A DNA stretch of 64,000 nt from Pseudobdellovibrionaceae bacterium (GTDB lineage Bacteria; Bdellovibrionota; Bdellovibrionia; Bdellovibrionales; Bdellovibrionaceae): the NCBI GenBank assembly GCA_039810425.1, contig JBDHWW010000003.1:64001-128000 (forward strand), in the 5' to 3' direction. Positions within the stretch are counted from its first letter, which is position 1. Each line of letters opens with the position of its first letter. A program made the translations under genes and the position numbers. Below are positions 28,113 through 40,558 of this stretch, piece by piece. Under the pieces are notes generated by a model. That model was given only the letters and a program-made list of their open reading frames with translations, was not told the DNA's origin and searched no databases.

Positions 28113-28188
28113 TCCCTTGCGTCTCCACTAGCTAGTACTGCAAAATTAAATGATTATTGACGGCAAAAGTCCACCAGAAGGTTCTCCA

Positions 28189-29898
28189 ATGAACTCTCAA
28201 ACTGCAAAAACATCTCCGCTTCGAACAGTTCTGAAAGAACTCGTGCTGCCTTATTGGACACGTTCGGAAGATCGCTGGCGCGCGCGCGGATTGTTGGCTC
28301 TCACTTTGGTGTTGATCGTCGGTATGGTTTACGCCCTAGTTCTACTGAATCGCTGGAATCAAGCGTTCTACGACGCCCTTCAGAACTTGAATAGAGAGGA
28401 GTTCATCAGCCAGCTATGGCGTTTTTTCTTTATTGCGCTTTTTTACTCCGTGATCATGGCCTTGAAGTTCTATGTTTTGCAGAGCCTCGCCATCAACTGG
28501 CGTCAATGGATCACCGAAAAAGGCCTGCACCGCTGGCTCAGCGACAAGAACTTCTATTATTGGCAATTCAGCGGACATGAACACGATAATCCCGATCAGC
28601 GCCTCTCTGAAGATATTCACGAACTCACCGACTTGAGCCTCGAAATCTCAGAGAAGGTGATCCGTGAGTTCATCACCTTTGTGTCGTTCATCGGCATTCT
28701 CTGGAGCCTTTCAGGCTCGGCCAAATTCACGGCGTTTGGTTATAACATTGAGCTTTATCGTTACCTTGTTTGGGTTTGCTTGCTTTACGCGGTGGTCGGG
28801 ACTTTCATCGTTCACAAGATTGGTCATCCGCTTTCAAAACTCAACTTTATGCAGCAAAAACTCGAGGCGGATTTCCGTTACTTCTTGGTGCGCCTGCGTG
28901 AAAACAGCGAAAATGTGGCTTTACTCAACGGCGAAAAAGCCGAACAGCAAAAGCTTTCGACCAAATTCTCCCAGGTCGTGGGTAATTTCAAAGCGCTGAT
29001 CTCGCGCCAGAAGAAACTGATTCTAACGACGAATATTTACGGTCAGTTGGCTTATATCTTTCCGTTTGTGGTTGCGTCACCAAAAGTGTTCACCAAAGAG
29101 ATCACTCTGGGGCAGCTTTTCCAGATCAGCAGTGCCTTTGGCCAAGTGCAAGGGTCGGTCTCGGTGTTTGTGGATATGTATGCGAAGATCGCGCGACTGC
29201 ATTCGGTCGCTCTGCGTTTGGGCGGATTCTTAGGTTTGCTCGAAGAAAATCACGGGCTTCGCGAAAAAGGCCTAAATGGAAAACTCCATGCAACAGAGGG
29301 CGCGGGTCTTTCCGCCGAAGATTTGCGGGTCCTAACGCCACAGCAGCAAACTTTGTTGACCGCCGTAAATCTAAAACTCACCCCAGGACAGAGCTTGCTA
29401 ATCACAGCTCCTTCGGGAAAAGGCAAAACCACCTTGCTTCGCACTCTGAACGGCATTTGGCCTTTCATTGACGGACAGATTCATCTGCCTCGTCACAGCC
29501 ACCGTCTTGTGCTCACACAAAAAGCCTACTTACCGATCGGCACCCTGCGCGCGGCTCTGGCCTACCCGCTTTCCGCCGAAGCCTTCAGCGATCAAGACAT
29601 GGTTACAGCTTTGGCCGGCACGAAATTGAACTCACTCATTCAGCATCTTGATGACGAAGACTACTGGTCGCAACGTCTTTCTTCCGGCGAGCAACAGCGT
29701 TTGGCGCTGGCGCGTGCCTTCTTGCAAAAACCCGAAGTTTTGTTTTTAGACGAAGCCACTTCCGCCCTCGAAAAAGACACCGAAGCCGAGATCTACCAAG
29801 CTCTGATAAAATCCTTCCCCAAGATGATTCTTATCAGCTTCAGTCACGAAGCTGGCCCTCTCGCGGCTTTCCACCAAAAAACTCTGGCATTGCTCTGA
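28189..29898 (+). CDS. SbmA/BacA-like (YddA/ABCD-type) ABC transporter, fused permease-ATPase
   Basis: NRWNQAFYDALQ, DNPDQRLSED, EADFRYFLVRLREN, Walker A APSGKGKT, LSSGEQQR, LDEATSAL. Confidence 0.9.
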   Translation: MNSQTAKTSPLRTVLKELVLPYWTRSEDRWRARGLLALTLVLIVGMVYALVLLNRWNQAFYDALQNLNREEFISQLWRFFFIALFYSVIMALKFYVLQSLAINWRQWITEKGLHRWLSDKNFYYWQFSGHEHDNPDQRLSEDIHELTDLSLEISEKVIREFITFVSFIGILWSLSGSAKFTAFGYNIELYRYLVWVCLLYAVVGTFIVHKIGHPLSKLNFMQQKLEADFRYFLVRLRENSENVALLNGEKAEQQKLSTKFSQVVGNFKALISRQKKLILTTNIYGQLAYIFPFVVASPKVFTKEITLGQLFQISSAFGQVQGSVSVFVDMYAKIARLHSVALRLGGFLGLLEENHGLREKGLNGKLHATEGAGLSAEDLRVLTPQQQTLLTAVNLKLTPGQSLLITAPSGKGKTTLLRTLNGIWPFIDGQIHLPRHSHRLVLTQKAYLPIGTLRAALAYPLSAEAFSDQDMVTALAGTKLNSLIQHLDDEDYWSQRLSSGEQQRLALARAFLQKPEVLFLDEATSALEKDTEAEIYQALIKSFPKMILISFSHEAGPLAAFHQKTLALL

Positions 29899-30017
29899 GA
29901 CCGTTCTTTCACCGTTCACAGCAGAGCCCAGAGACCTATGAAGCTCACGCAGGTCCATTCAGCCAGCGTGAAAATAATGTTGAGCAAGCAAGAATAAAAA
30001 AAGCATCCAACCGGCTG

Positions 30018-30437
30018 CTAACGGAGACGACCGAGGGTCACGCCTGTCTCTTTGGCGATGAGGGCGGCGGAAATTTTCGCAACTCCCCCACCGAAACTCC
30101 TACCCAGCAAAATACAATCTGGCCGGCGCCCCTGCCACTCGGATGCCAAGAACTTTCCGGTACGATAAAGGCCTGACTGAATCTCATCACAAATCATCGG
30201 AATATGGCGCGGTTTAAAAAGAAACCCGACTTTCACCGATCATGCTTTGGCTCGGAGATCATGGCGATTTCCAGACTTTGCTAGCCGTGCCTGAAAAAAT
30301 CTCCGCGAGCTCCCAAGTGGACGCTTTTCCGTGATTGGGCCGCTGGCAAAGCAAAGAACACTATTCGCCTTCGAGCGCCTCATCGAGTCCGTGCAAGAGT
30401 TTAAAAAATCAAATTTGAAGGCCGAAGTCTTCGACAA
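30018..30437 (-). pseudogene. Degraded fragment of a class III PLP aminotransferase
   Basis: ICDEIQSGLYRTG...PDCILLGRSFGGG (catalytic Lys position reads Arg) in a 72-aa ORF; upstream FLNSCTDS resembles the N-terminal NSG.E motif; most of the gene is missing. Confidence 0.7.
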
Positions 30438-30548
30438 AGAGGTAATAGTTACATTGTGCCCCTACACGGGGTTCTGGCGCCAAGTTTGATACTTTATTCT
30501 AACTACTTATTTTTACTTGTCTTTTAAGCGTGGTGGCAAAATAAAAAT

Positions 30549-30564
30549 TGGCCCTTGAATTGCA
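30549..30564 (+). promoter_or_regulatory. Sigma54 promoter of the radical SAM-peptide-HK-RR operon
   Basis: TGGCCC-TTGAA-TTGCA (GG-N10-GC, one mismatch to consensus), about 65 nt upstream of ATG 30630, preceded by an AT-rich tract. Confidence 0.7.
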
Positions 30565-30629
30565 TATTTTTAGCCTTGGAAGTGGATGGTGACATAAGGT
30601 CACCAGTTGGCCACTATTGGGGACGACTC

Positions 30630-31937
30630 ATGGAACTACGACGCTACAAAGACATCCTAGCGCTAAAATCAGAAGAGGGCACTCTTCTGGCGTTTCATTC
30701 GCGCAACATGGAGGTCGCTCAAATCTCAGAAAGCGCCTGGGTGAACATGAACCCAACAACGTTGCTGAATTCGAACCCTTCGAAGGTTGTGCTCCAAGAA
30801 TGCGAAGCCCTCGAAGAGCTCAAAACTTGGAACCAGGAAGACAACGCTCAGGTTAAAACCAGCAAGATCAGCAACAACATCCGCTTTCTTACAATCAACG
30901 TGACTCAAATCTGCAACCTCCACTGCTCCTACTGCGCGGCGGGCGGCGACGGTACGTTCGGCGATAGCATCGCCAAAATCTCTATCGAAAAAACCTTACC
31001 GCAGATCAAGTTCTTCCTCGATCGTTTGCCACAAGGCTTAAGCTTCAACGTAAGCTTCCTCGGTGGCGAGCCTTTGCTTTATGCTGAAGGCCTCGAGATG
31101 ATTGCGAAATATATTGCTGACATCGCCCCTGAACGCAGCGTGAATTACACGATCATCACGAACGGCACATTGCTGACGGACAAAAATGTTGATTTGCTGG
31201 CACGCATGAAAGCCACCGTGACGATCAGCCTTGACGGTCCTGCGGAGATCAACGATCGCATGCGTCCGACCAAGAACGGAACTTCATCAACGGCGATGAT
31301 CGTGAAAGGCCTTGAAAAAGTCCTCGCACGCAAATCAGAATTCAGCCACGTGATGATTCACGGAGTTTTCGATAGCCAAAACATGGCGCTTGTGAAAGCT
31401 TACGAGTTCTATTCCCAATTCAACGTGGACAGCTATGATTTTTCATTCTCGGTTTCTGACAACAATCCCCGCGCGACTCAAGAGTACATGGAACAAATGA
31501 CTCAAGTCGCCGCGCTGGCTTACGCTCAAGGTGGCGAGAGGGCTCTCAGAAAGATCCGCGCGTTTGAACAGCATTTTCAGTCGTTGGACCAACAACGCCG
31601 TACCGAAAACTATTGCGGCGCCGGCAAGTCCTTCTTGATGATTGATGCCCGCAATCAGATCTACACCTGCCCTTGGGATGTGAATGAAAAGAAAGAGCAA
31701 GTTGGCCAAGGAACAGAGTTAAGCGAAAAGGCTTTGGAAGCGTACCAAAAGCCGATTCTCGAACAGAACAAATGTGAAACCTGCTGGGCGCGATTCCTAT
31801 GCGGCGGCGGCTGTATGTTCGCCCATAAGCATGGCTCAGGATCTAAGAACGTTAAAAATACGCTGTTTTGCGAAAGAACAAGATTTATGGTAGCGCTGGC
31901 ATTGATCTACTATGAGCGATGCCGAAGCGCCGCCTGA
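30630..31937 (+). CDS. Radical SAM/SPASM peptide maturase (ranthipeptide/SCIFF maturase-like)
   Basis: CNLHCSYC, FLGGEPLL, TNG, ISLDG; SPASM Cys pattern CGAG...YTC...CETCWARFLCGGGC...C; N-terminal extension compatible with an RRE domain. Confidence 0.9.
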   Translation: MELRRYKDILALKSEEGTLLAFHSRNMEVAQISESAWVNMNPTTLLNSNPSKVVLQECEALEELKTWNQEDNAQVKTSKISNNIRFLTINVTQICNLHCSYCAAGGDGTFGDSIAKISIEKTLPQIKFFLDRLPQGLSFNVSFLGGEPLLYAEGLEMIAKYIADIAPERSVNYTIITNGTLLTDKNVDLLARMKATVTISLDGPAEINDRMRPTKNGTSSTAMIVKGLEKVLARKSEFSHVMIHGVFDSQNMALVKAYEFYSQFNVDSYDFSFSVSDNNPRATQEYMEQMTQVAALAYAQGGERALRKIRAFEQHFQSLDQQRRTENYCGAGKSFLMIDARNQIYTCPWDVNEKKEQVGQGTELSEKALEAYQKPILEQNKCETCWARFLCGGGCMFAHKHGSGSKNVKNTLFCERTRFMVALALIYYERCRSAA

Positions 31938-32001
31938 ACCACAACCACCAGGACATGATGGAGCAATAATGATGAAATTCCTAACTCTACTAAAGGAAAA
32001 G

Positions 32002-32136
32002 ATGATGGAAAAAATAGAGAAAAAACACATTAAGAAGCTGAAGCCACAAACATCTCAGCCTTCGCATTTTGGGCCTGGTAACGGCGGCAATCCGTGCCCT
32101 CCAGTCGGTGGCGATATTATGGTACCAAACAACTAG
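32002..32136 (+). CDS. Putative RiPP precursor peptide (44 aa; alternative starts at 31969/31972)
   Basis: AAAGGA RBS; MMEKIEKKHIKKLKPQTSQPSHFGPGNGGNPCPPVGGDIMVPNN; lies between the maturase and the kinase. Confidence 0.7.
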   Translation: MMEKIEKKHIKKLKPQTSQPSHFGPGNGGNPCPPVGGDIMVPNN

Positions 32137-32155
32137 TTTGAGGAACTGACTAACG

Positions 32156-34033
32156 ATGGCACTTCCTCCTTCGCAGACTAAAACAAAAGGCCCTTTCAAA
32201 GGTGGAATCTTGTATTCCGTCTTGCGCCTTGTTTTGGCTTGCGCGATGGGCGTTTTCATCAGTCAGCTCAAACTCGATTCTTGGGAATCCATGCTCTACG
32301 ACATGCGCGTTCGCTTGTTGCCGGAGCCCGCTCCTTCGGGTCAGATTGAAATGATTTTGACCACATCGCGGACGGTAGAAACCCTCAAAGGGATTCCTAC
32401 TGCGAAGGAGCAATTGGAACTCCTTAAGAACCTCGAACGCGAAGAGCCTCTGGCGGTTCTTTACATCCAAAACCTCGGCGAGCTTGAAGGAAGTGCTGAA
32501 GAAAAAAAAGCCTTCGCCGCTGAAGCTTTGAAGCTCAACAACCTGTACATGGCCAGCCAGGATCTTGAAATGAAAGGCGAAGAGGGAAAGCTCCGCCTGG
32601 CGGAGCCACTCAATACGATTGAACTCTTCCCCGGCCCACGCACCAGTGATGGCGATGTGCTTGCCCAGGATAAGGTGACCCGTCGTATGATGATCACTTA
32701 CCAAGACCGCCAGATGATTCACCCCTTTATTGCCAGCCTTGTGAATCCTGAAGTTTCCAAAAAGGAAAATATCCGCGGTCTGTTTGAGTTCTTTGACTCT
32801 GAACAGGTATATATCAGTTACCGCAAAGCTGACACGTATCCAATGACGGCATTTGAAGACGTCATGGATAAACGTTTTGAACCGGGTCACTTTAAAAACA
32901 AAATCGTTCTGATCGGTAACGATCACGGCGGCTCCGTGCGTGACTACGTGAAGACGCCATTTTCCAAAGACGCGAAGGCCATGACCCTCGTGGAACTTCA
33001 CGCCAATATGCTTGATACTTTGATTCAAAATAAAGCGCCGATTCAGGCGGCCCCCTGGTTGAACGTATTGGTGACGATACTAACGTCCATCATCACCGTT
33101 TACGTTCTCTTCACAATGAAACCAATTCGAAGTCTCACGATTCTGGCGGCGACCGGCGGTGCCTTACTCGTATTCAGTGCGATCGCTTTCTGGCCCATCG
33201 GCTATTGGGTGAAGATGGCGCATCCCTTCCTGGCGATCTTCTTGTGCTATTACTTCTTTATCCCCTACCGCTTGATCATCGAAAATCGTCGCAGTTGGGA
33301 ATACTACCAGAAAAATAAGCTGCTTTCCCAAGTTGAGGAACTCAAAGGCAACTTCATTTCGATGATGTCGCACGATTTAAAAACGCCGATTGCCCGTATT
33401 CAAGGCATGACCGATGTGATTCTCAAGGACCAACAACCCTTGAGCACCCAGCAACGCGAAGCCGTGGATACGATCCGTCATTCCGGTGACGATCTTTTGC
33501 GGTTCATCAATGCGATTTTGAACTACGGTAAGATCGAGAGCCAAGGGGTCCAACTGCATATGCAAAGTCGGGACGTTAATTCATTGCTGAAAGACGTTAT
33601 CCATAAGCATGAGTTCCTGGCTAAGGTAAAACGTATTCCGATTAAGTTTGAATCCGAGCCTTTATTTCCGATCCAGGTGGACCCCGAGCTCATGAAGCAA
33701 GTGTTCTCGAACCTTATAGAGAACGCCATTAAGTACAGCCCTGAGGAATCTCAGGTGCAGGTTCACAGCGAAGAGGTTAACGGCAAAGTGATCGTTCGCG
33801 TCCAAGACAGCGGACCTGGAATTCCAGAGGACGAAGTGAGCAACATTTTTATGAAGTTTTTTAGAAGCAAGAATGCGAAAAGTTCTCCGATTAAAGGATC
33901 GGGACTCGGGTTGTACCTTGCTAAATATTTTACAGAATTGCACCAGGGCAGAATCTTTGTTGAAAGTACCTATGGAAAAGGATGTACTTTTACTGTAGAA
34001 CTGCCTCTGGAACAGGGGAGGTCACATGCTTAG
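32156..34033 (+). CDS. CHASE2-domain sensor histidine kinase
   Basis: DKVTRR, FKNKIVLIG, TPF, VELHANMLDTL (CHASE2), three TM helices, H-box SHDLKTP, NLIENAIKY, DSGPGI, GSGLGL. Confidence 0.92.
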   Translation: MALPPSQTKTKGPFKGGILYSVLRLVLACAMGVFISQLKLDSWESMLYDMRVRLLPEPAPSGQIEMILTTSRTVETLKGIPTAKEQLELLKNLEREEPLAVLYIQNLGELEGSAEEKKAFAAEALKLNNLYMASQDLEMKGEEGKLRLAEPLNTIELFPGPRTSDGDVLAQDKVTRRMMITYQDRQMIHPFIASLVNPEVSKKENIRGLFEFFDSEQVYISYRKADTYPMTAFEDVMDKRFEPGHFKNKIVLIGNDHGGSVRDYVKTPFSKDAKAMTLVELHANMLDTLIQNKAPIQAAPWLNVLVTILTSIITVYVLFTMKPIRSLTILAATGGALLVFSAIAFWPIGYWVKMAHPFLAIFLCYYFFIPYRLIIENRRSWEYYQKNKLLSQVEELKGNFISMMSHDLKTPIARIQGMTDVILKDQQPLSTQQREAVDTIRHSGDDLLRFINAILNYGKIESQGVQLHMQSRDVNSLLKDVIHKHEFLAKVKRIPIKFESEPLFPIQVDPELMKQVFSNLIENAIKYSPEESQVQVHSEEVNGKVIVRVQDSGPGIPEDEVSNIFMKFFRSKNAKSSPIKGSGLGLYLAKYFTELHQGRIFVESTYGKGCTFTVELPLEQGRSHA

Positions 34034-35558
34034 AGTTTTGGTGGTCGATGATGATCAGGGATTAAGACTCTCAGTCAAAACAGCGCTCACGACGTCGAAT
34101 CGTTTTGAAGTTGAAGAGGCCTTTGACGGCCTGAATGCCATCGAGAAAGTAAAGGCACCTGAGAACTCAGGCGTAAAGAAGTTCGATGTTGTTATTCTTG
34201 ATGTCGACATGCCACGTATCAACGGTCTGGAAGCACTCAGACTGATCAAAGAACATGATCCAGGAATCATCGTATTGATGATCACGGCCCATGCAACTTT
34301 AGACCATGCGGTTCAAGCGGTCAAAGACGGCGCTTACAACTATCTTTCAAAACCTGTTTCCGGCGATGAACTCTTGGCCCTGGTGGATAAAGCAGTTTCC
34401 GCGCACACGATGATTTCAAACATCGCGGCATCGGCACCCGTGCTGGTGGAAGCGGGACGCAAGATTATCGGTAACACCCAGCAAATGCAGAAAGTTTTCA
34501 ACATCATTCACCGTCTGGCGAAGGTTGATACTCCCGTGTTGATTCGCGGCGCTTCTGGTTCTGGTAAAGAACTCGTTGCGAAAGCGATCCACTACAATTC
34601 TGCCCGTAAGGATGAAAAGTTCGTGGCCATCAACTGTTCTGCGATCCCGGAGAACTTGTTTGAATCAGAACTCTTCGGTCACGAAAAGGGTTCTTTCACT
34701 GGCGCGGATCAGCGCAAAATTGGTAAGTTCCAGTTTGCGGAAGGCGGAACATTGTTCTTGGATGAAGTAGGCGATATGCCACTCATGATGCAAGTTAAGA
34801 TCTTGCGCGTCCTCCAAGAGAAAATGTTCACCCCGGTGGGTTCAAACCGCGAGATTTCAACAAACGTAAGAATCGTGGCGGCGACAAACCGTCCTTTGGA
34901 AGACATGATCAAGGCCGGCACGTTCCGCGAAGACTTGTTCTATCGCTTGAATGTGGTCCCTATCTTCTTGCCCGCTTTGGCTGACCGCAAAGACGACATC
35001 GAGAACTTGATCAACATCTTCATCAAAAAGTTCAATGCAGCTCATGGCAAACGCATCTCTGGTGTGGCTCCAGATGCTTTGTCAGCGCTCAAGAAATACC
35101 AATGGCCGGGCAACATCCGTGAGTTGGAAAATGTGATTGAACATGCTTTCGTTCTTGAGACCCACAACATGATCACATTGGCGTCACTCCCAGAAGCGGT
35201 TTTGGCCGCAGCGGGTGTAAACTTGATTGATGCGTTGGCTCAGCCTGCGGTTGTTGATACGAAAGCGGCGGCTTCTATGTCCACAGACCTCGGTGACGAT
35301 GAGGATTTAGGCGTTGTTGATAGCGAAGACCTCGCGTTGGACAATGACGAAGGCGAAGTTGCAACTGTTTCTATTTCAGCTGGCAGCCTCGATTTTAACG
35401 CCCAAAAGGAAGCTTTCGAGAAAGAGTTCATCATCAAGGCTCTGAAGACCTTTAAAGGCCGCATCAACCAAACGGCTTTGCATGCTAACATTCCAAAGAA
35501 GACCCTGCTCCGCAAGATCGAAAAATATGGAATCATCGCAAAGGATTACTCTGTTTAA
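34026..35558 (+). CDS. Sigma54-dependent response regulator (NtrC/AtoC family)
   Basis: REC domain (VVDDD, LDVDMP), AAA+ GASGSGKE, ESELFGHEKGSFTGA, WPGNIRELEN, C-terminal Fis-like HTH; overlaps the kinase stop codon. Confidence 0.95.
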   Translation: MLRVLVVDDDQGLRLSVKTALTTSNRFEVEEAFDGLNAIEKVKAPENSGVKKFDVVILDVDMPRINGLEALRLIKEHDPGIIVLMITAHATLDHAVQAVKDGAYNYLSKPVSGDELLALVDKAVSAHTMISNIAASAPVLVEAGRKIIGNTQQMQKVFNIIHRLAKVDTPVLIRGASGSGKELVAKAIHYNSARKDEKFVAINCSAIPENLFESELFGHEKGSFTGADQRKIGKFQFAEGGTLFLDEVGDMPLMMQVKILRVLQEKMFTPVGSNREISTNVRIVAATNRPLEDMIKAGTFREDLFYRLNVVPIFLPALADRKDDIENLINIFIKKFNAAHGKRISGVAPDALSALKKYQWPGNIRELENVIEHAFVLETHNMITLASLPEAVLAAAGVNLIDALAQPAVVDTKAAASMSTDLGDDEDLGVVDSEDLALDNDEGEVATVSISAGSLDFNAQKEAFEKEFIIKALKTFKGRINQTALHANIPKKTLLRKIEKYGIIAKDYSV

Positions 35559-35585
35559 TCAAGTCAAGTATAGTGAGCACATTTC

Positions 35586-35619
35586 AAAACCCGGCCGCAA
35601 GAAAACGGCCGGTTTTTTT
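35586..35619 (+). terminator. Rho-independent terminator closing the operon
   Basis: CCGGCCG-caagaaaa-CGGCCGG-TTTTTT. Confidence 0.8.
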
Positions 35620-35728
35620 ACCTCAACGATGATGAGGCTCAGGTTTCGACAAATAAATAACTAAATTATCATTAGCCCTTCACTTAGTTTCTAGATACGG
35701 TTTAATAGTTAAAACCATAAAAACAAGG

Positions 35729-36859
35729 ATGGCTACAATGAAAACTCTTCTGACACTATTAGGTGCAGCGCTTGTCTCCGCCAGTGCACATGCAAACTCT
35801 TTGGGCTTTGATTTTCGCGGTGATGTTCAAAGCATCGATTACAACGACGCCGCGGGCGCTTCTGACTACACCCGCTTTTACCTGAAAACCGGGCGGTTGT
35901 ACTACAAAGGCACCGTCAATGACCGCTTCAGCTATGATCTCCGCCTGGGTTTCTATAAGCCCGCCGCCGACAATGTTTCAGCCGCAGGAGTGCCCGCCAA
36001 TAGCCGACGCGATTCTGTCAATAGCTCCGTTGAGTATGCCTTCATGACCGACAAGATGAGTGACAACTTTGTCTTATCCATTGGTAAGCTCAATTCAGAA
36101 ATCGGCGGCTTTGAAGGGGCTTCATCCGGCGCGGACCTCTACATGGTTTCTCCTTTTTACCAACACAGTGCTGCTGTCGGCCTGTCGGGCGGCAACATCG
36201 GCATCAACGAATCGGGCACGCGCAATCTTCTCTACACGGCGGGCCTTAAAGGCGATATCAGCTTTTCGGACCAACACATTTACCTGGTAGCGGTGAATAA
36301 TATCACGGATGCGACGGACTCAAGCTCGGCAACCGGCACCTTTAACCAAAATCGTGGTATGATGGGTGTGATTTGGAAAGGCTCTTTCATGGATAAAGCC
36401 CTGACCGGCCTGCTCAGTTACCACACCGTCAGCCCGCAAGGGGCCGGCGCTGGCGGCCAAACAAACCCGGATAATAAGCATGACTTCATTTCTGCAGGCG
36501 CTAAATATGAAGATGCCACTTGGGTCGGCAGCCTTGAGTACAGTACGACGACATTTAAAGACGGAGCCAGTGGCAACAAGGACCAAGTCTATGCGGCCAT
36601 TGCAAAATTTGGCTACAAGCTCGATTCATGGACTCCACGTTTAGAAGTTTTCACCTCTGAGGAAAAACGCGAAGTTGGAGTCACTGAAACCAACAAGTTC
36701 ATGGGGGTCGGCGCGGTTGTTGAATACAAACCCACCGCTGAAAATGTCCGTTACCATTTGGCCTACAATAGCATCACGACAGACCCGGAAACCGGCGATA
36801 ACAAGATCCGAAATGAACTGGTACTGGGCGCACGCCTGTACGGCGATTTCCTGAAATAG
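35729..36859 (+). CDS. Putative outer membrane porin
   Basis: Signal peptide ending in AHA, beta-strand pattern, C-terminal ARLYGDFLK. Confidence 0.65.
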   Translation: MATMKTLLTLLGAALVSASAHANSLGFDFRGDVQSIDYNDAAGASDYTRFYLKTGRLYYKGTVNDRFSYDLRLGFYKPAADNVSAAGVPANSRRDSVNSSVEYAFMTDKMSDNFVLSIGKLNSEIGGFEGASSGADLYMVSPFYQHSAAVGLSGGNIGINESGTRNLLYTAGLKGDISFSDQHIYLVAVNNITDATDSSSATGTFNQNRGMMGVIWKGSFMDKALTGLLSYHTVSPQGAGAGGQTNPDNKHDFISAGAKYEDATWVGSLEYSTTTFKDGASGNKDQVYAAIAKFGYKLDSWTPRLEVFTSEEKREVGVTETNKFMGVGAVVEYKPTAENVRYHLAYNSITTDPETGDNKIRNELVLGARLYGDFLK

Positions 36860-36900
36860 TTGAGCGCGAACTTCCAGGCCGGAGCGATAACTCTTGCTAT

Positions 36901-36937
36901 GACCCACATCTTTTACTGGATGTGGGTCTTATTTTTT
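36901..36937 (+). terminator. Rho-independent terminator
   Basis: GACCCACATC-ttttactg-GATGTGGGTC-TTATTTTTT. Confidence 0.75.
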
Positions 36938-37161
36938 AAAGTAGAGTGTTGGGAGCATACCGCCTCGATTCAACCCTTCCTTGTTGCGAAAACCTGTGAC
37001 TCGTGGGTCAAAGACGTCACCTGAGCAAAGTGACTTTTTAATTCAAGTGAAATACCGCCGGTTATCGCGATGTGTATAAAAATATATTTCGTGAAAATCA
37101 GTTCTGTTGCGGGACTCGAGAATTGACTGAGTGACACAAGGACAATATCTTTCTTTCCCTC

Positions 37162-37647
37162 ATGACGATGAACCCCCTACCACCTCAGGCATATACCAAG
37201 GACACGCTGACAAAAGCCTACATGTGGCTTGTGCATCAGAGTGACGCTATCAAGGAGCTCGCGACGACTCCTGATATTTTGGTCAGTCTTTTTCTCAAGG
37301 CGCAACGGAACGGGGATGAAGCCCTGGAGACTCCGAGCATCCAAAATTTCAAAAAAGAGCTTAAAAGTTTAGCAGGTATGATGGGCGAACTCGACGGTGG
37401 CAAACCTGCGCCCGCCGTTTTTACCCAGCCTCCGCCCCAAACCGCTCCGCAGGTTGTCGTTCAACAAACTAAACAGGTAAATATCCAGAATAATCATATG
37501 CCTATGGATCTGGCTGGACAGATGGATGCAAAAAGCCGCGCGATGATTGCCGAAGTCCGCGAACAGTTAAATTTGAGTTCAGACCTCGAAGTCATCCGCC
37601 TTTTGGTCTCATTGGGCTATCACAAAGCCAAAAACCTCTATTCTTAA
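37162..37647 (+). CDS. Hypothetical cytoplasmic protein
   Basis: 161-aa ORF with two helical domains joined by a Pro/Gln linker. Confidence 0.65.
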   Translation: MTMNPLPPQAYTKDTLTKAYMWLVHQSDAIKELATTPDILVSLFLKAQRNGDEALETPSIQNFKKELKSLAGMMGELDGGKPAPAVFTQPPPQTAPQVVVQQTKQVNIQNNHMPMDLAGQMDAKSRAMIAEVREQLNLSSDLEVIRLLVSLGYHKAKNLYS

Positions 37648-37777
37648 GAGGATTCATCCCGACGAAGCTTGGGCGAGGAGATGACCGTCTGCTTCCAATA
37701 CAAAAACTCCAGTCAAATGGCTTAAATATTTAGCATTTTTCGAATATACTGGCCCCTTCAATTTCGAGGAGGCCCTG

Positions 37778-40558
37778 GTGTCTAGCACACTTCCTGACTA
37801 CAAATCCACAGTGCGATTGCCGCAAACTGATTTTCCGATGAAGGGAAACCTTCCGACGAAAGAGCCTGAAATTCTAAAGCAGTGGGATGACAAAAAGATT
37901 TATCAAAAGATGTCGACGAAAAACGCCGGCAAAAAACCTTTTGTGTTTCCGGATGGTCCTCCTTACGCCAACGGTTCGATCCACTTAGGTCATGCACTTA
38001 ATAAAAATTTGAAAGACATCATCGTTAAATACAAAAACATGAAAGGCCAACCGACTGTCTTTATTCCCGGTTGGGACTGTCATGGCTTGCCTATCGAACA
38101 CAAAGTTTTGAAAGACTTGTCCGCGAAGAAGGTCTCAAAGACTGATCAAGAGATCATGGCTCTTTGCCGTGCGGAAGCTCAGCATTGGGTGAATCACCAA
38201 CGCACGCAATTCCGCCGCTTAGGTATCTTGGCAGATTGGGAAAATCCTTATCTCACGATGTCCGCGGACTACGAAGCTGAAGAGGTTCGTGAGTTTGCGC
38301 GCGCTTATAAAAACGGTGATATCTATCGCGGTGAAAAACCGGTTTATTGGAACTGGACTCTGAAAACCGCTTTGGCGGAGGCCGAAGTGGAATATCACAA
38401 CCACAAGAGTCCGTCGATCTATGTGAAGTTCAACATCTCTGACAAAATGACCTTGGAAAAGCTCGGCAACCCGGGCAAACCCACCAGCATGGTGATCTGG
38501 ACAACGACCCCTTGGACCCTTCCTGCGAATTTGGGTATCTCTTTGCATCCTGATTTTGAGTACAGCGTTTTCGACGCGGGCTCTGAGAACCTTGTTATCG
38601 CCAAACCGCTCAAAGAATTCTTTGAGAAGGATACGGGCGTGACTTTGAAAGAAGGCAAGACCGTTAAAGGAAAAGACCTCGAGTTCGGTAAAGCTCGTCA
38701 TCCATTTATGGATCGCGATTCATTGATCATCCTTGGCGAGCACGTGACCGCGGATGCCGGTACTGGCGCCGTGCACACAGCTCCGGGCCATGGTGTGGAC
38801 GACTTTAACGTCGGTGCTCGTTACAAACTCGGTGTTTTGAATCCAGTGAACGATGCCGGCGCTTACACAGAGGAAGTGCCTGAATTCCAAGGCATGAACA
38901 TCTTTAAAGCAAATCCTTTGATCGTAGAAAAGTTGCGCAACTCAGGCCACTTGATCGCGATGAAAGAAATCGAGCATAGCTATCCTCACTGCTGGAGAAC
39001 AAAGACGCCGTTGATCTTTAGAACGACACCGCAATGGTTCATGGGTTTGGATTTGGAACATTCTCAAATCCGCAGGAAAACCATGAAAGAAATCGAAAAA
39101 GTTCAGTTTATCCCTGAGTGGGGCCGCGCGCGCTTCCAAGCTATGATGGAAAACCGTCCTGACTGGTGCGTGAGCCGTCAACGTATCTGGGGTGTACCAA
39201 TCCCGATTCTGATGTGTAAAGCCACTGGTGAACCGTTTGCTGATTACGATGTGATGATGAAAGTTGCTGATATCATTGAAAAACAAGGTGGTATCGAGGC
39301 TTACTATCGTGTGCCGGCTGACGAAATCGTTGGCACGGCTTGGCAGAAATCTCCGCAAGCAAAAAGCGATTCTAAATTCGGCTCTGAAGGCTTCCGCCAT
39401 GGTCGCGATATCTTAGACGTATGGTTCGACTCTGGCATCTGTCACGCGGCTGTACAAAAACGCCGTGAAGGCATGGCTTTTCCCGCGGATATTTACCTTG
39501 AAGGCAGTGACCAGCATCGTGGCTGGTTCAATACTTCGATGTTGTCCTCCATGGCGACTAACGGTCAGTCTCCTTACAAAGCGTTGTTGACCCATGGTTT
39601 CGTGGTGGATTCACAAGGCCGCAAGCAAAGTAAATCTTTGGGCAACGTGATCGATCCGAACGAAGTATCCGCGAAGTCCGGTGCGGAGATCATCCGTCTT
39701 TGGACTGCGTACGAAGATTACGGCAAAGACGTCAGTTGCGGCAAAGAAGAGCTCGATCGCGTGACTGAGACTTACCGCCGCATCCGCAACACCATGAGAT
39801 TCTTGTTGGGCGCAGTGTCTGACTTTGATCCGGCGAAAGACATGATGGATTATGAGAAACTCACGGCGATCGACCAATGGGCGTTGCATGAACTTTATGA
39901 ACTGACGGAGAAAGTAACTCAAGCGTACGACTCTTACGAATTCTACAAAGTTTATCACTTGCTCAATAACTTCTTTACGGTGGATTTGTCCGCGACGTAC
40001 TTGGACGTGTTGAAAGACCGCCTGTACACCTGGAAGGCCGATGGAGTTCCCCGCCGCGGTTCTCAGACGGTGTTATTCTTGACCACGGACTACCTCGTGC
40101 GCATGATGGCTCCGATCCTTTCATTCCTATCCGAAGAAGTTTATGGCTATGTCAAAGGGACTAAAGCGGAGAGTGTTTTCTTGTTGGAGTTCCCGGAAGC
40201 TCCGATGAAATGGAACAACCCGTCCCTAAATCAAAAATTTACGGGCTTGCTCAAAGTTCGTGGCGATGTGCAGAAGGTTCTTGAAAACCTCCGCGCACAA
40301 AAAGTCATTGGCGCGAGCCTAGAGGCATCCGTGACTATTAAGGCGGAAGGCGATCTTTTAAAAGACCTAAAGGGCTTTAAGGATTTGCGTGAATTCCTGA
40401 TTGTCTCTAAAGTAGATGTAGTCATGGGTTCTTACGAAGTTTTGGCGGAGAAGGCTCCTGGCGAAAAATGCGTGCGTTGTTGGACTTACTCGACTGAAAT
40501 CAGTCAGGTTCCAGCAACTCTCGGTATCTGTCCTAAATGCGTTGAGGCACTAACATGA
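37778..40558 (+). CDS. ileS: Isoleucine--tRNA ligase
   Basis: DGPPYANG.HLGH, GWDCHGLP, WTTTPWTLP, EGSDQHRGWF, KQSKS, C-terminal zinc finger. Confidence 0.98.
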   Translation: MSSTLPDYKSTVRLPQTDFPMKGNLPTKEPEILKQWDDKKIYQKMSTKNAGKKPFVFPDGPPYANGSIHLGHALNKNLKDIIVKYKNMKGQPTVFIPGWDCHGLPIEHKVLKDLSAKKVSKTDQEIMALCRAEAQHWVNHQRTQFRRLGILADWENPYLTMSADYEAEEVREFARAYKNGDIYRGEKPVYWNWTLKTALAEAEVEYHNHKSPSIYVKFNISDKMTLEKLGNPGKPTSMVIWTTTPWTLPANLGISLHPDFEYSVFDAGSENLVIAKPLKEFFEKDTGVTLKEGKTVKGKDLEFGKARHPFMDRDSLIILGEHVTADAGTGAVHTAPGHGVDDFNVGARYKLGVLNPVNDAGAYTEEVPEFQGMNIFKANPLIVEKLRNSGHLIAMKEIEHSYPHCWRTKTPLIFRTTPQWFMGLDLEHSQIRRKTMKEIEKVQFIPEWGRARFQAMMENRPDWCVSRQRIWGVPIPILMCKATGEPFADYDVMMKVADIIEKQGGIEAYYRVPADEIVGTAWQKSPQAKSDSKFGSEGFRHGRDILDVWFDSGICHAAVQKRREGMAFPADIYLEGSDQHRGWFNTSMLSSMATNGQSPYKALLTHGFVVDSQGRKQSKSLGNVIDPNEVSAKSGAEIIRLWTAYEDYGKDVSCGKEELDRVTETYRRIRNTMRFLLGAVSDFDPAKDMMDYEKLTAIDQWALHELYELTEKVTQAYDSYEFYKVYHLLNNFFTVDLSATYLDVLKDRLYTWKADGVPRRGSQTVLFLTTDYLVRMMAPILSFLSEEVYGYVKGTKAESVFLLEFPEAPMKWNNPSLNQKFTGLLKVRGDVQKVLENLRAQKVIGASLEASVTIKAEGDLLKDLKGFKDLREFLIVSKVDVVMGSYEVLAEKAPGEKCVRCWTYSTEISQVPATLGICPKCVEALT

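Follow-up and report, generated by a model that had tools for sequence, protein, structure and literature searches.

The locus described here lies in a window of 64,000 nucleotides (nt) from a Pseudobdellovibrionaceae bacterium (assembly GCA_039810425.1, contig JBDHWW010000003.1, positions 64,001 to 128,000 of the forward strand), and all positions given below are those of this window. At its centre is a very small gene, 32002..32136 (+), encoding a 44-aa peptide with a single cysteine that appears to be the precursor of a modified peptide. Upstream of it, a gene at 30630..31937 (+) encodes a radical S-adenosylmethionine (SAM)/SPASM peptide maturase of 435 aa, counted from ATG 30630. Its product has a CX3CX2C motif, a seven-cysteine SPASM domain and an N-terminal domain resembling the RiPP recognition element (RRE; RiPP, a peptide made by the ribosome and modified after translation). 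Downstream, a gene at 32156..34033 (+) encodes a membrane-bound histidine kinase whose sensor is a periplasmic CHASE2 domain (Pfam CHASE2, HisKA, HATPase_c), and the gene at 34026..35558 (+), which overlaps that of the kinase, encodes an NtrC-type response regulator with a receiver domain, a sigma-54 AAA+ domain and a Fis-type helix-turn-helix (Pfam Response_reg, Sigma54_activat, HTH_8). According to our analysis, the small peptide belongs to a previously undescribed and unnamed family of single-Cys ribosomal peptides in the Bdellovibrionales, and it is almost certainly modified by the neighbouring radical SAM enzyme.

The reading frame open at 31912-32136 (+) comprises 74 residues, the last 44 of which form the peptide. 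Its translation gives MMEKIEKKHIKKLKPQTSQPSHFGPGNGGNPCPPVGGDIMVPNN, encoded from ATG 32002/32005 to the TAG at 32134-32136, with the leader KKHIKKLKP at 32020-32046 (+), the sole Cys codon at 32095-32097 (+) and the core C-P-P-V-G. An earlier note on this DNA had described a 44-aa peptide at 32002-32136 with one Cys, an Asp at +6 from it, a single His-Phe pair and GG pairs flanking NPCPPV, and the translation confirms each of these features. The same note had called the start ambiguous, as GGAG stands before ATG 31969/31972 and AAAGGA before ATG 32002/32005. The gap from the maturase stop to the open reading frame (ORF) is 32 nt for the long form and 65 nt for the short one, and the ORF stops 20 nt before the kinase start. 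Because an AAGGA-type Shine-Dalgarno (SD) sequence before ATG-GAA-AAA (32005) is conserved in 7/7 genus members, whereas ATG 31969 is present in 6/7 with a clear SD in some only, the 43/44-aa form is favoured as the product, and the 55-aa form from 31969 is kept as a possible longer version. In other genera, a Met stands 0-10 residues ahead of K-H-I-K. A start at ATG 31912 was rejected because the extra N-terminal part overlaps the maturase gene and is not conserved.

To see how widely this arrangement occurs, we searched 61 related genomes for the maturase and found it in 40, including 34 of the 36 from the same family; nearly every locus in those genomes carries a small ORF of the same kind after the maturase gene. 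The set was then formed by these related genomes, larger regions and 80 named loci from the public genome collection, 130 maturase loci in all, which are not all independent since some genomes were fetched twice. A profile of the peptide matches an ORF between maturase and kinase genes in 127/130 loci. The three misses are two contig ends and one divergent C-P-E variant. The 130 loci yield 92 distinct C-terminal sequences and, after start assignment, 81 distinct full peptides, most copies being preceded by GGAG, AGGA or GAGG at the usual SD distance. The earlier note had tied a precursor-type peptide to the upstream SPASM maturase and would have given up this idea if homologous maturases lacked a conserved ORF beside them; the ORF is there.

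The small ORF is a genuine gene that is conserved and under purifying selection. Within the genus, all 21 pairwise comparisons gave ratios of nonsynonymous to synonymous change (pN/pS) of 0.04-0.33, with pS values of up to 0.96, near saturation. It is the amino-acid sequence that is conserved, beyond a mere open frame. In a search of 1.84 billion proteins, 39 cluster representatives match the peptide profile at E<=1e-3, all of 30-68 aa and with the same layout. A word-indexed search with the window peptide returned 11 close relatives, either annotated as 'hypothetical protein' or unnamed. No family of Pfam or NCBIfam is matched by the peptide, its profile finds no match among the PDB chains, and an Rfam scan of 29800-37800 gave nothing credible. 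A 213-nt contig from a wastewater metatranscriptome is identical to 31898-32110 and spans the maturase stop, both candidate starts and most of the peptide gene; a second RNA-library contig, identical to 32501-32731, lies inside the kinase gene. One sequencing run contains the stretch in full and may be where it came from. The DNA or probable-DNA sequencing runs gave short pieces only, and parts left uncovered in the RNA-library contigs are uninformative.

The family has a simple anatomy, a Lys-rich leader followed by a short core. The leader consensus is x-K-H-I-K-K-[V/I/L]-K-P. Among the 67 peptides with the His, Ile follows at +1 in 61, Lys at +2 in 58, at +3 in 56 and at +5 in 48, and Pro at +6 in 51. 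The distance from this His to the Cys has a median of 22 residues and falls within 18-24 in 54/67. The core, for which we aligned the 92 C-terminal sequences at their last Cys, follows the consensus G-x-G-C-x-P-x-(G/R/K). Pro occupies +2 in 89/92; apart from the Cys itself, this is the sole near-invariant core position (Pro, or Glu in the C-P-E variants described below). Gly is found at -3 in 57/92 and at -1 in 41/92. Position +1 is aliphatic, Pro or Lys, position +3 is V, T, L, S or I, and position +4 is G in 45, R in 14, K in 9 and N in 6 of the 92. The C-terminus lies exactly four residues past the Cys in 40/92 and three past it in 3/92, and 77 of the 81 full peptides have exactly one Cys.

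These counts bear on the chemistry that had been suggested from the window peptide. K-H-I-K, read there as the leader, is indeed the conserved leader of the family, and the Cys is conserved beside the maturase homologs as well; the Asp is not, since one follows the Cys in only 30 of the 81 peptides. A ring from Cys to Asp or Asn is also hard to reconcile with the 40/92 sequences that end four residues past the Cys. Likewise, an aromatic crosslink through His/Phe finds little to build on, an aromatic residue or His standing between leader and Cys in 15/81. GG as a cleavage site fares no better: GG precedes the Cys in 26/81, and the cassette is without a C39-peptidase exporter. All three readings were rejected on conservation: Asp, His-Phe and GG, as seen in the window peptide, are features of its genus that the family as a whole does not keep. 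The near-invariant C-x-P and the sigma-54 operon with its CHASE2 kinase and sigma-54 activator are features beyond those noticed earlier.

In a second family of the order (f6), a peptide with an MKH[IV]KK or MKNIKK leader is encoded at 12/12 maturase loci. By profile, six of these peptides match at E<=0.01, four at E 0.018-0.39 and one at E 2.7, and all were read by eye. Seven of the twelve end in C-P-E-(L/I/R), with Glu replacing Pro at +2. Such C-P-E endings with a kept leader were seen at L145-L150 and L156, all in f6, and also at L122 and L123. Three further loci (L013, L047 and L111) have a tandem pair of peptide genes after one maturase gene, with differing cores.

We then asked which of its neighbours the peptide gene follows. 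Kinase orthologues are present in 54/61 relatives, compared with 40/61 for the maturase. At 10 of the 11 maturase-less loci examined, the kinase-regulator pair stands alone behind unrelated genes, and the contig of the eleventh breaks off just ahead of the kinase; six or seven of the ten have a sigma-54-like site in front of the kinase. In f6, the kinase is found in 38/61 genomes and the maturase in 13, where it adjoins the kinase in 13/13. Of 20 kinase-only loci in f6, ten have a promoter-like site, which in nine of them lies 60-110 nt before the kinase and leaves no room for a peptide gene. The peptide profile gave nothing at E<1 in 31 maturase-less kinase loci (132 kb, both strands). A maturase-peptide pair away from the kinase was not found either. 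Co-inheritance of kinase and peptide is thus one-way only: the kinase often occurs without the peptide, and the peptide was never found without the kinase. As the peptide tracks the maturase and not the kinase, we infer a substrate relation between the two, with the pair as a 5' add-on to this operon.

This distribution also weighs on the idea that the ORF encodes a small unmodified protein, or acts as an upstream ORF tuning translation or activity of the kinase, the radical SAM enzyme having another substrate. Small proteins that modulate sensor kinases are known, and the ORF does stop just before the kinase start. However, its presence follows the maturase, the amino-acid sequence itself is conserved, and the combination of a leader, a short core and a CteB-type enzyme with an RRE-like domain fits a RiPP pair. 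We consider this explanation highly improbable.

Two observations on maturase-less loci belong here. L051, from a genome of the window's own family (G019, 99% complete), has the kinase-regulator pair and is missing maturase and peptide; a 42-aa ORF rich in Gly, Pro and Asn, which lacks both Cys and a KHIKK leader, sits between its sigma-54-like site and the kinase gene and may be a remnant, a replacement or chance. An older link between peptide and kinase through such Cys-less ORFs (Lys-rich at L055, L056 and L057, Gly/Pro/Asn-rich at L051) was considered and dropped, since nine of the ten f6 kinase-only loci with a promoter-like site have no room for a gene and the profile finds nothing in maturase-less loci; the Cys-less ORFs before maturase-less kinases are probably chance ORFs.

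In a phylum-wide sample, the maturase family occurs in 43/301 genomes, almost all of this order, the sole outside match being a contig-end fragment. Named records place it in Bdellovibrionaceae and Pseudobdellovibrionaceae, including B. bacteriovorus strains.

The maturase matches Pfam Radical_SAM and Fer4_12. Among NCBIfam models it scores best against the nif11-peptide maturase, PapB, the SCIFF maturase, CcpM and QhpD, in each case far below cut-off (TIGR03974, 139 bits against 425; NF047865, 161.6 against 340; TIGR04064, 161.7 against 518.7), and it also weakly matches the 'geopeptide'-type model TIGR04280 (111.8 bits). By these scores, it falls outside every named NCBIfam family. Ten cysteines are invariant in an alignment of 20 sequences, at positions 95, 99 and 102 and at 329, 347, 382, 385, 391, 395 and 414. 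When a profile of the maturase was compared with all PDB sequences, CteB (5WGG/5WHY) was matched at E 1.3e-49, TigE at 2.5e-22 and the anaerobic sulfatase-maturating enzyme (anSME) at 3.5e-21. In the profile alignment, the maturase family has, like CteB, one Cys before the SPASM core where anSME has three. The AlphaFold2 model of the maturase (predicted local distance difference test score 89.8, predicted template modelling score 0.90) has 5wgg_A as its best Foldseek match, over the full length including the N-terminal domain, with template modelling (TM) scores of 0.79/0.78. The match to the anSME fold covers the core only, with a query-normalised TM score of 0.65. Judged from profile and model, the maturase has a CteB-type fold, and its nearest characterised relatives are the SCIFF/ranthipeptide thioether synthases. 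As in ranthipeptide and sactipeptide systems, a radical SAM/SPASM enzyme homologous to thioether synthases carries an N-terminal domain of the leader-binding type, and the precursor gene adjoins that of its maturase and is inherited with it (127/130 loci, none in the 31 maturase-less kinase loci).

CteB offers a framework for what this enzyme may do. In the sections that two reviews, one of them PMC8326336, devote to it, the CteB leader is bound as a beta-strand on the RRE, and one cluster of its SPASM domain has an open iron, to which a substrate Cys was bound in the crystal. The product described there is a single thioether from Cys to the C-gamma of Thr, Cys32-Thr37 in vitro and Cys32-Thr34 (i+2) in vivo.

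By analogy, we propose that the Lys-rich leader (K-H-I-K-K-V/L-K-P) would dock on the RRE-like N-terminal domain of the CteB-like maturase. A ruler of about 22 residues would then place the lone Cys of G-x-G-C-x-P at the open iron of auxiliary cluster I, a SPASM cluster that, as in CteB, would have only three protein Cys ligands. A 5'-deoxyadenosyl radical would abstract hydrogen from some residue close by, closing a single, very small thioether ring. The link that we favour joins Cys(i) to residue i+2, Pro in most peptides or Glu in the C-P-E variant, because +2 is the only near-invariant position besides the Cys and CteB makes an i-to-i+2 link in vivo. The backbone C-alpha at +3 or +4 could serve as an alternative acceptor and would explain the tolerance of side chains there. 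Our preferred reading is therefore that the product is a new RiPP similar to ranthipeptides, that it has a single small thioether ring at C-x-P and that its production is controlled by the two-component system encoded in the same operon; to this we give a probability of roughly 0.6.

The lone Cys could also meet another fate. In an anSME-like reaction, the maturase would oxidise it to formylglycine by abstraction of a C-beta hydrogen, at a motif similar to C-x-P-x-R, and release an aldehyde peptide with no crosslink. The anSME motif is C/S-x-P-x-R, and the core of the family reads C-x-P-x followed by R in 14, K in 9 and G in 45 of the 92 sequences, its Pro at +2 being present in 89/92; no other acceptor residue is conserved, and anSME is a clear, though more distant, relative by both profile (E 3.5e-21) and fold (TM 0.65). 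However, the maturase is much closer to CteB, its N-terminal leader-binding domain lies outside the fold match to anSME, and ahead of the SPASM core it has one Cys in place of the three of anSME. Moreover, Arg at +4 is a minority state (14/92), and the C-P-E variants do not fit C-x-P-x-R. Oxidation of the Cys is in our view unlikely.

Several points nevertheless weigh against a thioether ring made under this two-component system. As the maturase scores below all named-family cut-offs, homology does not reveal which reaction it performs. Both the thioether and its acceptor are proposed by analogy, and only Cys and +2 are conserved; to our knowledge, a thioether to proline is unprecedented. The C-x-P-x-R/K/G core bears a resemblance to what we take to be the sulfatase formylglycine motif. 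Even the Pro at +2 is absent in 3/92 main-type peptides, and one locus (L151) has C-E-I. In f6, the kinase is without the maturase-peptide pair in 25/38 genomes, and the same holds in several other families; since the kinase-regulator pair is so common without the peptide, the peptide is not needed for the two-component system. No protease or exporter, including a C39-peptidase exporter, was found in the conserved cassette. Finally, the RNA-library contigs are a weak hint of expression, and such contigs can derive from DNA.

The closest known systems are CteB/CteA and Tte1186/Tte1186a, which make SCIFF peptides (thermocellin) and whose maturases share the layout of RRE, radical SAM domain and seven-Cys SPASM domain. 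SCIFF precursors presumably begin with an M-K-H-I-K leader, to which the K-H-I-K of the present family can be likened. As in the cassette described here, CteB/SCIFF clusters have no protease or exporter, and their product, as far as the CteB sections of the two reviews go, has one thioether ring a few residues wide, as we propose here. In contrast to SCIFF, the family peptide has one Cys instead of six, lacks a conserved Thr acceptor and has the core G-x-G-C-x-P. The cassette is embedded in a sigma-54 two-component operon of aerobic predatory Bdellovibrionales, whereas SCIFF is found in Clostridia. The SCIFF model (TIGR03973) matched 1/47 family peptides, faintly (E=0.1), and did not match the window peptide; in the window's own genome it gave no match at cut-off and none at this locus. 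The resemblance to SCIFF that had been noticed in the leader thus does not extend to membership. We class the system as a radical SAM/SPASM RiPP of ranthipeptide type and not as a SCIFF member.

Other SPASM enzymes offer partial parallels. PapB, which makes freyrasin, as well as QhpD and NxxcB are radical SAM/SPASM enzymes that join a Cys sulfur to C-beta or C-gamma of a nearby Asp, Glu or Asn, according to the corresponding sections of the same two reviews. PapB is among the best NCBIfam matches of our maturase, at the sub-threshold score given above, and the C-P-E variant offers a Glu, as do QhpD substrates. The family peptides differ in that they have no C-x3-D or N-x-x-C motif, and acidic or amide acceptors are missing from most members. 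In anSME, a SPASM relative, the Pro two residues past the target Cys resembles the family core; unlike the maturase, anSME has no N-terminal domain in the fold match, has extra Cys ligands and acts on precursors that are folded proteins, not on leader peptides.

The four genes are probably co-transcribed from one sigma-54 promoter. A -24/-12 site, TGGCCCTTGAATTGCA, lies at 30549..30564 (+), with the form GG-N10-GC and TTGCA, and is conserved in 7/7 genus loci. In the 600-nt window upstream of the maturase, the strict sigma-54 pattern occurs in 18/30 loci, compared with about 0.06 expected per window from a background of 86 matches in 825,598 bases scanned of the loci. The best upstream site by position weight matrix outscores all other positions of its locus in 24/30 loci, and in 7/12 loci outside the matrix training set. 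As in other sigma-54 operons, the -24 GG/-12 GC promoter is accompanied by a Sigma54_activat protein in the same operon. No terminator-like site was found between the peptide and kinase genes. A strong intrinsic terminator at 35591..35619 (+), with a 7-bp all-GC stem (35591-35612) followed by TTTTTTT, closes the four-gene unit. As the four genes stand behind one sigma-54 promoter, the kinase and sigma-54 activator of the operon would most likely switch peptide production on, a form of autoregulation.

About 100 nt upstream of the promoter, a conserved non-coding block (GACAA..GTAATAGTTACATTGTGGC) at 30433..30462 (+) has a core that is invariant in 7/7 genus loci, with flanks that cannot be aligned. 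This candidate upstream activating sequence may be a binding site for the sigma-54 activator of the operon. About a dozen loci of the Bdellovibrio group have a related block (roughly TGTAATAGTT.C.TTTTG.CCCCA, by eye), located 107-186 nt ahead of the start of the maturase gene; in the block scan, 32/95 loci had it at <=4 mismatches, some of these being chance matches elsewhere or on the other strand. Between promoter and maturase start, in the 5' leader, a palindrome (GGTGAC-ATAAG-GTCACC) occupies 30588..30604 (+). Its symmetry is kept within the genus despite changes in both arms (GGTGAC/GTCACC, AGTGTC/GACACT and AGTGAC/GTCACT), and it may form an RNA hairpin or serve as an operator.

The kinase gene lies directly downstream on the same strand in 127/130 maturase loci. 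The regulator gene follows that of the kinase in 18 of 20 long loci; in one of the others it is divergent and upstream, and the last is cut at a contig end. Flanking genes vary between genera. Two rearranged loci were seen, L124 with the kinase upstream on the opposite strand and L040 with the regulator divergent upstream of the maturase.

This constant neighbourhood raises the question of whether the mature peptide is an autoinducer. It would exit the cell, bind the periplasmic CHASE2 domain of the adjacent kinase and raise expression of its own operon through the sigma-54 activator, a peptide quorum or self-signalling loop in a predator. Such a loop would extend the ranthipeptide reading and does not contradict it. 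The order peptide-kinase-regulator behind one sigma-54 promoter is found in 127/130 loci with differing flanks, and no maturase-peptide pair turned up apart from the kinase (13/13 adjacent in f6). A table in the review already cited gives quorum sensing as the role of SCIFF in Clostridia, with reference to Chen et al. 2020 (PMC8326336). On the other side, kinase-regulator pairs with a sigma-54 promoter right before the kinase and no room for a peptide are common (25/38 in f6, and G019 in the window's family), the cassette has no exporter or leader protease, and the leader is not a secretion signal. Because the kinase so often occurs without the peptide and no exporter is encoded, we hold the kinase-ligand idea as a tentative and rather doubtful one. 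That everything holds together, with a CteB-like enzyme making a three-residue thioether ring from Cys to the +2 Pro (or Glu) and the product being the self-made ligand of the CHASE2 kinase, seems improbable.

The cassette can also be compared with pheromone systems. As in agr and in streptide, which is controlled by shp/rgg, the genes for a small modified peptide, for the enzyme that modifies it and for a signal-transduction pair stand side by side, and here the peptide gene adjoins those of a sensor kinase and a response regulator. Radical-SAM RiPPs under signalling control are known, as the review notes where it treats such systems (PMC8326336). The present cassette differs from pheromone cassettes by the lack of a dedicated exporter or protease, by its sensor, a CHASE2 kinase working with a sigma-54 activator, and by a kinase pair that often occurs without the peptide.

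Two genes nearby deserve mention. An ABC protein with an SbmA/BacA-type membrane domain is encoded at 28150-29898 (+), about 650 nt upstream of the operon. We rejected it as an exporter of the peptide, as it adjoins the cassette in 2/3 same-genus loci and in 0/17 loci from other genera. At 37162-37647 (+), a 161-aa protein without Pfam or NCBIfam match is encoded; in most loci its gene comes next after that of the regulator or a short way further on, whether or not the maturase is present.

Our full-text literature searches returned no description of this cassette, although supplementary tables of genome surveys may list it as 'ranthipeptide', and the leader string yielded no relevant mention. 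Genome surveys that mention both Bdellovibrio and ranthipeptides, in the portions that the searches returned, only count classes of biosynthetic gene clusters. The peptide itself is annotated as 'hypothetical protein' or is absent from annotation.

Bdellovibrio is studied as a model predator and is a candidate 'living antibiotic'; the cassette occurs in 34 of the 36 genomes sampled from the family as well as in named strains of B. bacteriovorus. With one Cys, one near-invariant Pro and often four residues past the Cys, the peptide is close to the simplest conceivable substrate of a CteB-type enzyme, and it offers a clean system for learning what such enzymes need and which carbon they attack. 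If the ring is indeed closed on Pro or Glu, the crosslink would be one that no known natural product has. We know of no ligand for CHASE2 sensors. The fixed pairing with a CHASE2 kinase and a sigma-54 activator makes the peptide a possible input or output of CHASE2 signalling and thus a testable lead. If the mature peptide proves to be a self-made ligand of the kinase, it would be the first CHASE2 ligand and would reveal the first peptide signalling loop in predatory Bdellovibrio, B. bacteriovorus included.

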